Shown here in pieces: positions 3,001 through 6,000 of a stretch of 64,000 nt of DNA. Origin of the DNA: Enterobacteria phage VT2phi_272. The stretch's first letter is position 1; each line of letters begins with the position of its first letter. A program made the position numbers. The DNA lies in the sequence record NC_028656.1; one strand, written 5' to 3'.

Positions 3001-6000
3001 CGTTCACTCTGACAATTCGTTGATCAAGTCACGGTATTTATTCAGTTCTTGCAACGCCTTACATGCACCCTCCCATCGTTTCTGTTTCCGCCCGGCGCGG
3101 CGCGCTTCTTTCCGTGATTTACGTAGCAGGTCACCTATAATGTTGTTCTGCACTGGCTGAACTGGCTGAACTGGTTGAACTGGTTGAACTGAATCAATAT
3201 CTGTTTTGCTTCCAACTCCCTCTACTGCCTGCCAGATGCCGTTTTTTACCTTTACGATCCCCTGGTTTTTCAACTTCCACAGCGTATCAATGACGTCATT
3301 CAAATCAATATTGAGACCTTTAGAAATGCTGTCGGCTGTTGCTTTTCCTAATTTGTTCAATTCTGTGAGTACGGCGTTCATTTTTTTCTCCTGATATTTT
3401 AATGTCGGTGGGGGTGTTATGCGATTGGTGAGGTGTCAGCTTCTTCTACCAGCTTTTCCAGTTCATCCAGCTTTCGGGAAAGAATTTCACCAAACAGATG
3501 AAGTTCTGTATCTGCTGTGATCGGGATCGGAACAAAGCGTATTCCACTTCTGGCAAGTTGATTTGCGATTTCCAGGCACTGCCTTAATTCAACTGGTGAT
3601 GCCTTTGTCAACGTCGTTTTTTCGCTCATTGGTTTTCTCCAGAAATTTAACAATACCCGGAACCATCTCAATGGATGGTGTTCCGCATTGGTTACCCCAG
3701 ACATCAAATCCATGCGAGGTGTGACGGGCGAACAGTTCTATCCGGGGAACATCGCCAAGAAGTTGCACAAGTTTTTCTCGCGCCATATCCGGCTTGCGGG
3801 AGTGATCAAGGCGCGGTGCAGTGAATGACTGGATTATTCCGGCGTTAATGCGTTCAGGCAGATTTCCTTTCACTGCAAAAAGGCAGTCTTCGCTGTTAGC
3901 GCGAGTGGTGCTACCCATACCCATGACCAGCTTGTCGGTCTGTCTTTTCCCGCATTTGTTCCAGGTTAATCCTTTCATCGTCACCAGACGAAAGCCCCAC
4001 GCTTCTACAACCTTCAATGCTTCAAGTGGTTGTGTAGGCACCCACCACATAGCCAACAGGCAATTATCGGCTGCCAGTTCCCATACCGGGAGGCGGCAGA
4101 TATCCAGAAGACTCATGACCGGATATTTAAAACTTGCACCGCGTTGACCATCGGTTGCTTTGTCTCGGAATGTCCAGGGGGGATCTGCGTAAATGAGAGT
4201 GTATTTTTTCGTCATAGCGCGTTTTCAAACTCATCAATGTAAAGTCCTGCTTTAATCAGTCGGCGACGGCGTTCGGCCTTTTGCACGTATTCCTCGCGAC
4301 AGTTTTTTGCTGCGTGTTCACGGCTTCTGCGACTGAATGGAGGAACGGCATTGCGTGAGCGAGGTGTGTCACGACGAGGATTTGATTCGAGGGAGAAAAA
4401 GCGATCAACGATTCCGGTGTCTGTGGTGAATGGTTCTGAAGCCTTTATTTTCACAACCTTACTGCCCTTTGTCAGGCCGCGAGCTACCTTGTTGAACTCG
4501 CAAAGTGAAACACCAAATTTCTCTGCTATTTCACTGCCAGTAACAGGACGACCACGAGACTGAATCATCCAGGTGACGCGTTCTTTTAACCCACGGAAGG
4601 CACCGGGCCTTCCAGAACGCCTGTAGAAAGCGATCTGTTTCAAATTTTTGTCTCCAGATATGAAAACCCCGACGGGATGTCGGGGATGGTAGGGGAAGTT
4701 ACAGGCTTAACGAGAAGCCTTTTCGGGAATTTCGATCTGACAGTCTTGAAATATCCTGTAGCGTGCGGCGCATTTCTTCCGTCAGATGTTTGAAGGCGTT
4801 AAATTCAGCGACAGCCGCATCGACGTTATAGCCCTTGCTGTGTAGTTCGTTGAGGATACGCATGGTTGGGCTTGGCATGTCGAAGAGTACAGAAACGTCC
4901 AGGTTAAGAGTTTTTCGATCAACATAGCTCATCATGGAGTAGGGGTGGTGCTCTGAAAACCACGATAGAGGGTAGTTGATAGATAGTGTTGATTCTGGAA
5001 GCTGAAGTTGTTCTGGGATTTTTTGACTGAAATAGCAGTCTTCCAGTTTTTCGAACACTTCCCACGCCCGATCGGTTTCGAGCATTTTTGCGTGACGGGC
5101 TGCGCCGCGTTCTGTCCAGAGGATGAGGGAGCGAACGTTACGGGCGATTTTCACAGAGTAGTTAAAAGCTACTCTGTGCTTGAACTCACGTAAAGTTTCA
5201 CCTTCAAGTTTGAAGAAGTGTTTTTCCTCAATGAAACGACCTTTGTTTTCGTGGTGATTCTGGCGAATACGAATAGCTTCTGTGCCGTAAAGGTGCGCCA
5301 AAAGTTCGGTAGTGATAACGGGGATCTGCTTGTAAGTAATCGTGGAGAGTGTTTCAACAGAAACTTGAGTTGTCATTATGACGCCCTCGAGTGGTTTCTA
5401 AACTATCACCACCGTTAGGTTCGAATCATCGGGTGGTGAGACGTACAGGGTTCGAACTACCGGGAAACCAACCGGCGAGCTTTTCAGCTCCCCTATACGC
5501 CCCACCATAATTCAGATGTGCGCGTGCATACGACAATAAAAAACACGCTCGCGGCGTGTCTCTGTCGCGGTTTCTATCCGGGGTTCGAATCCCGACGGTC
5601 AACTCGACCGTGCGAAGAATATAATCCCGGATATGTGTTGTCGTCAACAAGTGGCGTGCTATCATCGAATAGTGTTCTATCCTACTCAGTGAGGTTTAAC
5701 ATGCGTACAACCCAACAATTCAGCATTACATTAACCAACGAAATGGCTGACATGGTGCGCGCCCGTGTGGCTTCCGGTGCATACGCTTCAGAAAGCGAAG
5801 TTATTCGTGAAGGGCTTCGTGCACTGAATGAACGCGACAAAGCAATGGAAGCGTGGTTAATACACTCAGCCGCGCCGCCACTCGACGCTATTCGTGAGAA
5901 CCTAGGCAAAGGGCACTCCATTTCACAGGTTCGCTCTGAGATTCGCGCCCGGAACTAATCTGCATGGCATATGAAGTGCCACACTAACAAACTGCTCCAG

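Follow-up and report, generated by a model that had tools for sequence, protein, structure and literature searches.

The closest described system to the locus studied here is the gp6-gp5 gene pair of the Shiga toxin phage PA8, put forward in its description as the first rRNA methyltransferase to be encoded by a prophage (PMC10810198). In that study, His-PNB-2 (gp6) pulled down the MT-A70 methyltransferase gp5, and cross-linking supported the formation of a complex. Purified gp5 alone remained near background on DNA and RNA, dam- DNA included, while SAM consumption by the gp5-gp6 complex was over 13.5-fold higher on RNA than on dam+ DNA, with a preference for 16S over 23S rRNA and for 30S over 50S subunits in this assay. 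RNA from a PA8 lysogen was a poor substrate for the complex. Intact gp5 raised spontaneous induction and virulence, and the IS629-disrupted allele of phage PA2, which is defective in both respects, was not complemented by a DPPW to APPA mutant. The rRNA assignment rests on SAM consumption with no mapped nucleotide, as its authors state, and leans on an analogy with METTL3-METTL14; the construct co-expressing gp6 and gp5 also included gp4 (DUF1382). dam- DNA was used in that work with gp5 alone and the complex was assayed on dam+ DNA only, so that any GATC-specific methylation of DNA by the complex would have gone undetected.

Other MT-A70 enzymes of phages and transposons have been assigned to DNA. 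According to PMC10810198 and PMC6602927, which cite Fang et al. (2012), M.EcoGV of the O104:H4 Stx2 phage reportedly methylates GATC when overproduced alone; the former paper describes it as highly similar to gp5, and REBASE relatives are said in the literature to be annotated as GATC enzymes. PhiBZS1_p32, an MT-A70 protein of Serratia phage BZS1, was shown experimentally in a Dam- host to be a GATC DNA methylase, and M.EfaBMDam of Tn1549 is a further prokaryotic MT-A70 GATC DNA methylase (PMC7556043). In ciliates, the MTA1c complex (MTA1-MTA9-p1-p2; PDB 7F4L/7F4R) deposits DNA 6mA at ApT, and MTA1 needs small DNA-binding partners of helix-turn-helix type, with stable SAM binding attained only once assembled (PMC9174199). 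Finally, a PstI-like CTGCAG system, that of M.EcoGIII, has been described in Stx phages.

Identity of the locus with the PA8 gene pair

We analysed a window of 64,000 nucleotides from Enterobacteria phage VT2phi_272 (NC_028656.1), which is an E. coli O157:H7 Stx2a prophage of the PA8/ArgO145 type, inserted at the argW tRNA gene. Positions 3380-4760 are identical at the nucleotide level to phage PA8 (KP682374) across all 1381 nt, and the same 100% identity was found in eight further phage records and in many O157:H7 chromosomes. The features identified are listed in Table 1. The segment 3589-4643 (minus strand) carries gp6 and gp5 of a PA8-type Stx2a-converting prophage: both genes and the arrangement of the PA8 holoenzyme M.EcoPA8orf6770P-PNB-2 are sequence-identical in the window, and the gene order gp7-terminator-gp6-gp5-gp4 is common to the two. 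The window carries the intact PA8 type of allele, unlike the IS629-disrupted allele of PA2.

The primers published in PMC10810198 provide a direct link to the same DNA. The DPPW to APPA mutagenesis primer corresponds to window positions 4162-4201, exactly except at the mutated bases, and the forward and reverse cloning primers match 4626-4643 (the gp6 start) and 3417-3435 (the gp4 stop), respectively. Thus, the gene pair is already known, having been purified and characterised by Gong, Chakraborty and Koudelka (NAR 2024; PMC10810198).

Table 1. Coordinates of the methyltransferase loci and their neighbours in the 64,000-nt window.
Feature	Position	Strand	Evidence
BsuBI/PstI-family restriction endonuclease	18190..19143	-	Pfam BsuBI_PstI_RE and its N-terminal domain; PADLOC REase_II
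Second adenine methylase, 489 aa, gamma-class, NPPY, Eco57I/PstI type	19140..20609	-	Pfam Eco57I; PADLOC
gp4, 70-aa acidic DUF1382 protein	3417..3629	-	Pfam DUF1382; RefSeq
gp5, 208-aa MT-A70 (beta-class) N6-adenine methyltransferase	3589..4215	-	Pfam, PHROG, PADLOC, PA8 identity, RefSeq
DPPW codons, catalytic motif IV, gp5 residues 11-14	4174..4185	-	Sequence; published mutagenesis primer
ATGA overlap, gp6 stop / gp5 start	4212..4215	-	Sequence read directly
gp6, 143-aa basic protein, predicted winged helix and basic tail	4212..4643	-	pI/composition, conserved N-terminus, AF2, Foldseek
GGAG Shine-Dalgarno, 8 nt 5' of gp6 TTG	4652..4655	-	Sequence read directly
Terminator-like hairpin CCCCGAC-ATCCC-GTCGGGG then TTTTCAT, between gp7 and gp6	4667..4685	-	Sequence
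gp7, ORF6N antirepressor-like (published PNB-1)	4699..5376	-	Pfam ORF6N; PHROG anti-repressor

The window matches PA8 at 100% in both 3380-4760 and 18000-20800 and is collinear with it there, with a constant offset of 1361 nt, indicating that the two methylase regions belong to one prophage. The second methylase is labelled 'modification methylase PstI' in the PA8 annotation, and its gene overlaps that of the endonuclease by 4 nt. As in EcoGIII, an Eco57I-type NPPY methylase and a BsuBI/PstI endonuclease lie next to cI, and the enzyme is the methylase of an EcoGIII-like CTGCAG restriction-modification pair. The EcoGIII system is a complete restriction-modification pair, whereas gp5 is an orphan, of unrelated class and role. 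The original prediction that this prophage carries two adenine methyltransferases of different classes was therefore correct, one being MT-A70 with DPPW and the other Eco57I-type with NPPY.

gp5, gp6 and the junction between them

The gp5 protein (M.EcoPA8orf6770P in the published nomenclature; WP_000163444.1 in the RefSeq annotation) covers the whole of the Pfam MT-A70 profile PF05063 (81 bits, the cut-off being 23.9; all 172 profile positions), and additionally matches PHROG 359, 'DNA methyltransferase', and the PADLOC Type II MTase model (4e-86). Motif IV ([DNSH]PP[YFW]) lies N-terminal to the presumed SAM-binding region, in the permuted order expected of the beta class. An alignment of 32 gp5 homologues revealed an invariant C-terminal block (E160 L161 F162 R164 ... 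G169 W173 G174 N175), which we take to be the SAM-binding motif. An AlphaFold2 model built from a 32-sequence alignment reached a pLDDT of 50, too poor for a fold search, and the family assignment is therefore based on sequence. By these features gp5 is a minimal MT-A70 N6-adenine methyltransferase, whose product would be m6A, and it contains no obvious target-recognition domain of its own. The PHROG 359 profile has 329 positions, which raised the possibility of a PNB-2-like domain fused to the N-terminus of longer MT-A70 homologues; we rejected it, as their extra length consists of variable C-terminal tails or mis-called starts. One long MT-A70 homologue is a deletion chimera.

No nuclease or defence model was found near gp5 with Pfam, PHROG or PADLOC, the neighbours being DUF1382, DUF1627, PNB-2 and ORF6N proteins. 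The absence of nuclease or restriction endonuclease models from the flanks (Pfam, PADLOC) led us to reject membership of gp5 in a restriction-modification or other defence system, and agrees with the earlier description of gp5, from the sequence alone, as an orphan DPPW methyltransferase with no adjacent endonuclease. The gp4 gene starts 41 nt within the gp5 3' end. Upstream of the pair, gp7 is not part of the enzyme: it was not co-induced, and was found in only about 14% of STEC encoding a gp5-identical protein (PMC10810198). Between gp7 and gp6 lies the hairpin, given in the same paper as the reason why gp7 constructs failed to express gp6 and gp5. A search of NCBIfam found no model matching gp5, gp6 or gp7.

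The partner gp6 (PNB-2, or EcoPA8orf6775P, in the published work; WP_000809302.1 in RefSeq; PHROG 1680) is strongly basic, with 22.4% Arg plus Lys and a pI of 10.75. Its TTG start is real, given the GGAG 8 nt upstream, the 143-aa RefSeq product, and the conservation of the first 25 residues, in which Y7, R8, R9, G11, G14, F16, G18, E21, R22 and W25 are invariant among homologues at 53-60% identity. The AlphaFold2 model of gp6 (pLDDT 59.5) contains helices at residues 19-30, 36-43 and 47-54, strands at 66-68 and 82-85, and further helices towards the C-terminus. In a Foldseek search of this model against the PDB no match fell below E = 0.01, and the weak matches were all generic winged-helix domains. 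We thus consider gp6 to be a predicted winged-helix protein, and a fold prediction of this kind cannot tell DNA binding from RNA binding. Searching the gp6 profile against PDB sequences returned nothing meaningful, and against Pfam no MT-A70 or other domain scored above the cut-off, with only a sub-threshold match to HTH_11. An exhaustive profile search of 1.84 billion representatives recovered only 63 clusters. Those in which most of the profile is matched measure approximately 125-155 aa, and no fusion with a methylase or any other known domain was evident; remote relatives give no functional lead. NCBI names gp6 a transcriptional regulator.

The junction between the two genes reads GCGCTATGACG, in which the TGA of gp6 and the ATG of gp5 have 4 nt in common; that the gp5 start overlaps the stop of the basic ORF had been noted previously from the sequence. 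Neither GGAG nor AGGA occurs within approximately 15 nt upstream of the gp5 start, which makes translational coupling of gp5 to gp6 likely. Overlaps of 4 nt occur at nearly every gene junction of these phage early-left operons, and the ATGA overlap alone is ruled out as proof of a partnership. The proposal that the basic ORF is a real partner is borne out instead by the published co-purification of the identical proteins and by the shift in substrate preference that the partner brings about (PMC10810198).

Substrate of the gp5-gp6 complex

We are moderately confident that the gp6-gp5 pair of the PA8-type prophage is a two-subunit methyltransferase complex, with a preference for 16S rRNA and the 30S subunit, that raises prophage induction. 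gp6 and gp5 would probably be made together through translational coupling and would assemble into a complex, in which gp6 may contact the nucleic acid and give the catalytic gp5 its substrate preference. rRNA, and not DNA, would be the target that matters in the cell, and expression in the lysogen raises spontaneous prophage induction and thereby the release of Shiga toxin. The original prediction had proposed that the prophage may modify its own DNA against host restriction. This is not supported by the only direct test of this exact pair, in which gp5 alone is essentially inactive on DNA and the complex prefers RNA, and the phenotype is one of increased spontaneous induction and virulence rather than of protection against restriction (PMC10810198).

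Several of our comparisons nevertheless bear on an alternative, which we judge unlikely but worth serious attention, in which gp5 is a Dam-like orphan DNA methyltransferase. DNA, most probably GATC, would then be the physiological substrate and gp6 a DNA-binding winged-helix accessory or regulator; the methylation would keep fast-replicating phage DNA fully methylated, either against restriction of unmethylated GATC or for epigenetic control of induction, and activity on rRNA would be secondary or arise only in vitro. The methylase of the O104:H4 phage P13374, whose gene occupies the same position as in the window, is identical to gp5 at 207 of 208 residues (the difference being A55S) and is preceded by an identical gp6 frame. 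This variant is apparently M.EcoGV, and the GATC specificity reported for that enzyme on overproduction, as cited in the papers above, conflicts with an rRNA assignment for gp5-gp6.

More distant comparisons are consistent with a DNA substrate, with qualifications. PhiBZS1_p32 and M.EfaBMDam share the Pfam family and beta-class motif order of gp5, and are likewise phage-borne, orphan and located near the integrase. PhiBZS1_p32, which favours the Dam-like alternative through its GATC specificity in a Dam- host, belongs to a different subclade from gp5 and methylated DNA in vivo without a partner. The HK639 enzyme shares 75% identity with PhiBZS1_p32 but only 44% with gp5, and carries a 23-residue insertion; the PNB-2 matches from the phage collection included no record of a Serratia phage.

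The best sequence match of gp5 to a solved structure is ciliate MTA1 (E = 7e-13, residues 3-172), with far weaker matches to the METTL3-METTL14 structures (4e-5, for METTL3, and 2e-3). The best solved relatives are thus DNA 6mA methylases that need small helix-turn-helix DNA-binding partners, which again favours DNA, and MTA1c appears to be the closest analogue of gp5-gp6 in its working mode, a mechanistic resemblance and not a membership. MTA1c differs from the phage pair in being eukaryotic and in having four subunits, including an inactive MT-A70 paralogue, and its partners are homeobox-like, without sequence similarity to the predicted winged helix of gp6. METTL3, on the other hand, combines a DPPW-bearing MT-A70 catalytic domain with an obligate partner for RNA binding, as proposed for gp5, but this partner is an MT-A70 paralogue and gp6 is not, having no MT-A70 match and no PDB sequence match.

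The biochemistry of the complex weighs on both sides of this question. The restriction of the published complex assay to dam+ DNA leaves room for a GATC activity, while the inactivity of purified gp5 alone on dam- DNA and the preference of the complex for RNA speak against DNA. The poor performance as a substrate of RNA from enzyme-expressing cells argues for site-specific RNA modification in vivo. In a dam+ host, GATC methylation would be redundant. No extra motif is seen in STEC methylomes, although this is uninformative for a GATC activity of gp5, as the host Dam masks GATC.

PNB-2 homologues and the downstream modification cassette

Beyond the published pair, we identified PNB-2 homologues upstream of a swappable DNA-modification cassette, which may contain MT-A70, either of two Dam families, N6_N4 or C5 methylases, or DndB. 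We tabulated, for 20 species-representative genomes, which modification gene comes first downstream of the PNB-2 homologue: a PF05869 Dam in seven, a D12 Dam in two, an MT-A70 gene in three and another or unknown modification gene in four, with none present in the remaining four. The PNB-2 homologue lies upstream of an MT-A70 gene in HK639 and in Klebsiella phage ST13-OXA48phi12.5, upstream of a Dam-like (damL) pseudogene in phi80, and overlaps a PF05869 Dam gene by 4 nt in Klebsiella oxytoca prophages. A -4 junction links PNB-2 homologues to MT-A70 (59 loci) and to PF05869 Dam (5 loci). The occurrence of PNB-2 homologues ahead of several unrelated DNA-modification families is consistent with the Dam-like alternative set out above, although this context may be positional only.

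The directly overlapping downstream partner is stable within particular PNB-2 subtypes: a gp5-type MT-A70 directly overlaps STEC-type PNB-2 in all 26 loci, and a 219-aa MT-A70 follows a second subtype in 32 of 34. One PNB-2 subtype (at least 90% identity), by contrast, precedes at least eight different downstream gene types. The cassette genes end in a common conserved ...EAA C-terminus, suggesting recombination at flanking homology.

These patterns could also mean that the two genes are neighbours by position only, gp6 being an independent early-left gene, for example a transcriptional regulator, at the border of a variable cassette slot, and gp5 acting alone. The generality of 4-nt overlaps in these operons, which may reflect operon packing, the variety of genes behind one PNB-2 subtype, the four of 20 representative loci without a downstream modification gene, and the shared ...EAA ends are all compatible with such an arrangement, as are the closest gp5 homologues outside the STEC type (73-83% identity), which stand alone in other phage modules without PNB-2 alongside. 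We nevertheless regard a purely positional association as very improbable. It is largely refuted by the published co-purification of gp5 with His-gp6, and additionally opposed by the cross-linking, by the effect of gp6 on the activity and substrate preference of gp5, by the presence of gp6 beside full-length gp5 in over 83% of STEC that carry the latter (PMC10810198), and by the stability of partners in the subtypes that directly overlap a methylase.

A broader possibility, which we put forward with considerable reserve, is that PNB-2 is no dedicated rRNA-targeting subunit but a member of a small winged-helix family of Enterobacteriaceae phages, which stands at the head of a swappable DNA-modification cassette and serves unrelated modification enzymes as an adaptor or regulator of a general kind. 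In that case gp5-gp6 would act physiologically on DNA, probably at GATC, or on DNA and rRNA alike, and relatives of gp6 would also bind non-homologous Dam enzymes. The cassette contents considered under this proposal comprise MT-A70, PF05869 Dam, D12 Dam, N6_N4 or C5 methylases, DndB and PAPS-reductase genes.

Experiments have tied the gp6-gp5 pair to the spontaneous induction of Stx prophages and to the virulence of STEC, and the pair is thus relevant to Shiga-toxin pathogenesis. If the rRNA assignment that we favour is true, a phage reprogrammes the ribosomes of its host through methylation. If the target is instead DNA, the published conclusion would need revising, and the cassette context would point to a small adaptor-protein family common to unrelated phage DNA methylases.

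The gp5-gp6 gene pair

Exactly this pair, gp5 and gp6 of the Stx2a phage PA8, was studied by Gong, Chakraborty and Koudelka (Nucleic Acids Res 2024; PMC10810198), who named gp5 M.EcoPA8orf6770P, gp6 PNB-2 and gp7 PNB-1, and as an object it is therefore already known. Exact matches to both of their cloning primers and, outside the mutated bases, to their DPPW to APPA mutagenic primer lie in the window.

The gp5 protein matches Pfam MT-A70 at 81 bits (cut-off 23.9) over the entire profile, with the DPPW motif at residues 11-14. No nuclease or defence-model match was identified among the neighbouring DUF1382, DUF1627 and ORF6N proteins, bearing out the original prediction of an orphan methyltransferase. 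The predicted coupling to a basic ORF also stood: gp6 is basic (R+K 22%, pI 10.75), and its stop shares four bases with the gp5 start (GCGCTATGACG). No Shine-Dalgarno-like sequence for gp5 itself lies within ~15 nt upstream, and it is thus reasonable to infer that its translation is coupled to that of gp6. The TTG start of gp6 is supported by a GGAG 8 nt upstream, by the 143-aa product annotated in RefSeq, and by conservation of residues 1-25 among homologues with only 53-60% identity. In phage P13374 (O104:H4; L122 3522-3953), gp6 is annotated as a 118-aa "regulatory protein" from an internal ATG; the full TTG-initiated frame is identical to that of the window, and the conserved N-terminus suggests that the short annotation is wrong. 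We located a terminator hairpin between gp7 and gp6 independently of PMC10810198, where it is also remarked on.

Features of the window discussed in the text
Feature	Position	Strand	Details
intS, CPS-53/KpLE1 element integrase	1-1194	-	
tRNA-Arg(CCT), argW	1320-1394	-	
Stx-phage integrase	1515-2759	+	
gp3, DUF1627	3004-3381	-	
gp4, DUF1382	3417-3629	-	70 aa, acidic
gp5, MT-A70 methylase	3589-4215	-	208 aa; Pfam MT-A70
gp6 (PNB-2)	4212-4643	-	143 aa, TTG start; ORF reading, RefSeq
Terminator hairpin	4685-4667		
gp7, ORF6N protein	4699-5376	-	
ParD-family antitoxin	5518-5958	+	annotation
HigA-family antitoxin	6373-6678	+	annotation
Rha-family protein	16682-17329	-	
BsuBI/PstI endonuclease	18190-19143	-	overlaps second methylase gene
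Second adenine methylase	19140-20609	-	489 aa; Eco57I/PstI-type, NPPY
tRNA genes Met, Arg-TCG, Arg-TCT	27183-27434	+	
Stx2A	27525-28484		
IS with rve-family transposase	32946-33836	-	

Prophage setting and neighbouring genes

The window represents the argW site of an E. coli O157:H7 chromosome, carrying a Stx2a-converting Oslovirus of the PA8/ArgO145 type. The segment 3380-4760 is 100% identical to PA8, ArgO145, Stx2a_F765 and other phages, and to many O157:H7 chromosomes. Among 5426 complete E. coli genomes it had matches in 321, and in 132 of these the match covered 80% or more of the query. The restriction-modification region aligns with PA8 at the same 1361-nt offset as gp5-gp6, placing both methylases within one PA8-collinear prophage and confirming that it encodes two classes of adenine methylase. 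The argW gene is flanked by two integrases, and for that of the Stx phage RefSeq uses a later start codon, giving 390 aa where the longest ORF would give 414 aa. Three phage tRNA genes sit directly 5' of stx2A, and the IS 3' of the lysis region matches in position the intergenic IS629 reported in PA8.

The gp4 start falls 41 nt within the 3' end of gp5. In gp3, a tandem PVQ repeat (VQPVQPVQPVQPVQ) separates a winged-helix-like N-terminal region, with weak TrmB and TFIIE matches, from a basic C-terminus. The gp7 and Rha-family proteins have nearly identical C-terminal stretches of ~95 residues (...PLSWFSEHHPY...FDMPSPTMRILNELHSKGYNVDAAVAEFNAFKHLTEEMRR...) preceded by differing N-terminal DNA-binding domains, indicating two mosaic antirepressor-like proteins in one prophage. 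The two antitoxin genes lie just upstream of the gp7-gp3 operon on the opposite strand, and look like orphans since RefSeq names no toxin beside either. The corresponding position in ArgO145 holds an antitoxin-toxin pair.

Modification cassettes downstream of PNB-2 homologues

We compared 110 PNB-2 homologue loci (10 exact-protein contig look-ups, 20 one-genome-per-species contigs and 80 viral contigs), a result beyond PMC10810198. The homologue usually follows recombination genes (exo/YqaJ, RecT) and precedes variable DNA-modification genes. Among the 20 species-representative loci, the first modification gene downstream was a PF05869 Dam in seven, MT-A70 in three, a D12-class Dam in two (one a C5 methylase fusion) and an N6_N4 methylase in one; one had DndB followed by N6_N4 and C5 methylases, two had unknown proteins (250 aa and 256 aa, one locus each), and four had no modification gene. 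PNB-2 homologues delimit, on the upstream side, a hypervariable cassette of DNA-modification genes (e.g. L007 4001-5933; L003 4001-7820; L015 4001-5462; L025 4001-7019), which can also contain PAPS reductase. Many cassette genes have a common ...EAA C-terminus, which suggests that they are exchanged by recombination at conserved flanks. In L095 (4529-5080) and L109, a 183-aa ORF combines an unrelated N-terminal part with the C-terminal 16 residues of the 219-aa MT-A70 (...ELIPGCAIDVVKTEAA), and looks like a methylase gene replaced or disrupted by an inserted gene.

In Klebsiella oxytoca prophages, the homologue and PF05869 Dam overlap by 4 nt. The homologue in Klebsiella phage ST13-OXA48phi12.5 overlaps a gene of the MT-A70 family, which has been cited as homologous to PhiBZS1_p32; the latter, also a phage MT-A70, is GATC-specific in a Dam- host (PMC7556043). 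In phi80 (L123 2995-4460), the gene between exo and damL encodes gp35, a PNB-2 homologue that shares 93% identity with the common Enterobacter/E. coli subtype; damL itself is recorded as a pseudogene of a DNA adenine methylase, frameshifted but with a frame that slipped-strand repair could potentially restore.

Clustering at 90% identity defined PNB-2 subtypes. The STEC subtype precedes a gp5-type MT-A70 in 26/26 loci and a second subtype the 219-aa MT-A70 in 32/34, while a third, followed by a 50-55-aa ORF, precedes at least eight different gene types. Outside the STEC type, the nearest homologues of gp5 (73-83% identity) occur in other phage modules without PNB-2, and MT-A70 genes behind other PNB-2 subtypes are only ~45% identical to gp5. 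The pairing is thus stable within lineages, yet not a family-wide exclusive partnership. That gp5 and gp6 are merely positional neighbours is improbable; gp5 co-purifies with His-tagged gp6 (PMC10810198).

RNA and DNA as candidate targets

The published evidence for an RNA target is substantial, and we lean slightly towards the two-subunit, rRNA-preferring model. In the sister phage PA2, IS629 interrupts gp5, with less spontaneous induction and less amoeba killing; plasmid-borne gp5 complements this defect in its wild-type form but not as the DPPW to APPA mutant. On its own, purified gp5 shows near-background activity with RNA and with DNA, dam- DNA included, and SAM use by the complex is >13.5-fold higher on RNA than on DNA, with a preference for 16S over 23S and 30S over 50S (PMC10810198). 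Direct experiments did not find the predicted self-protection of phage DNA from restriction, conceivable though it is. The absence of an additional m6A motif could not have refuted that proposal, as host Dam hides GATC activity.

A Dam-like DNA role is a possible but less probable alternative. The RNA preference was read from SAM use rather than a mapped base, and the complex was compared with dam+ DNA only, dam- DNA having been assayed with gp5 alone (PMC10810198). The best solved match to gp5 is Tetrahymena MTA1 (7F4R/7F4L; E = 7e-13), far ahead of METTL3 (E = 4e-5) and METTL14 (E = 2e-3). MTA1 is a DNA 6mA methylase that requires small homeobox-like DNA-binding partners and binds SAM stably only once assembled (PMC9174199). 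A single residue separates gp5 from the methylase of the O104:H4 Stx phage, whose gp6 is identical, and M.EcoGV, described as highly similar to gp5, reportedly methylates GATC when overproduced (cited in PMC10810198 and PMC6602927). Together with the cassette context, the MTA1 similarity and the published gaps make DNA a live target. The strongest point for RNA, however, weighs against it: RNA from cells already expressing gp5-gp6 is a poor substrate for the complex (PMC10810198). The co-expression construct begins at the gp6 TTG and ends at the gp4 stop; it therefore also encodes the 70-aa DUF1382 protein, which might be an overlooked third component of the "holoenzyme" preparation.

The AF2 model of gp5 was too poor for a fold search. 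That of gp6, of modest quality (pLDDT 59.5), predicts helix-helix-helix-strand-strand over residues 19-85, a disordered basic stretch (90-103) and C-terminal helices, with weak Foldseek matches, all winged-helix. This predicted fold agrees with the published description and is uninformative on DNA versus RNA. Searches with gp6 gave no lead in PDB, Pfam or NCBIfam. Its family (PHROG 1680, annotated as of unknown function) is small: one search yielded 65 clusters, and an exhaustive profile search yielded 63 representative ones, with no remote homologues or fusions evident; members, where named or located, all belong to Enterobacteriaceae or their phages. The residual value of the pair lies in its target and in the association of the PNB-2 family with modification cassettes.
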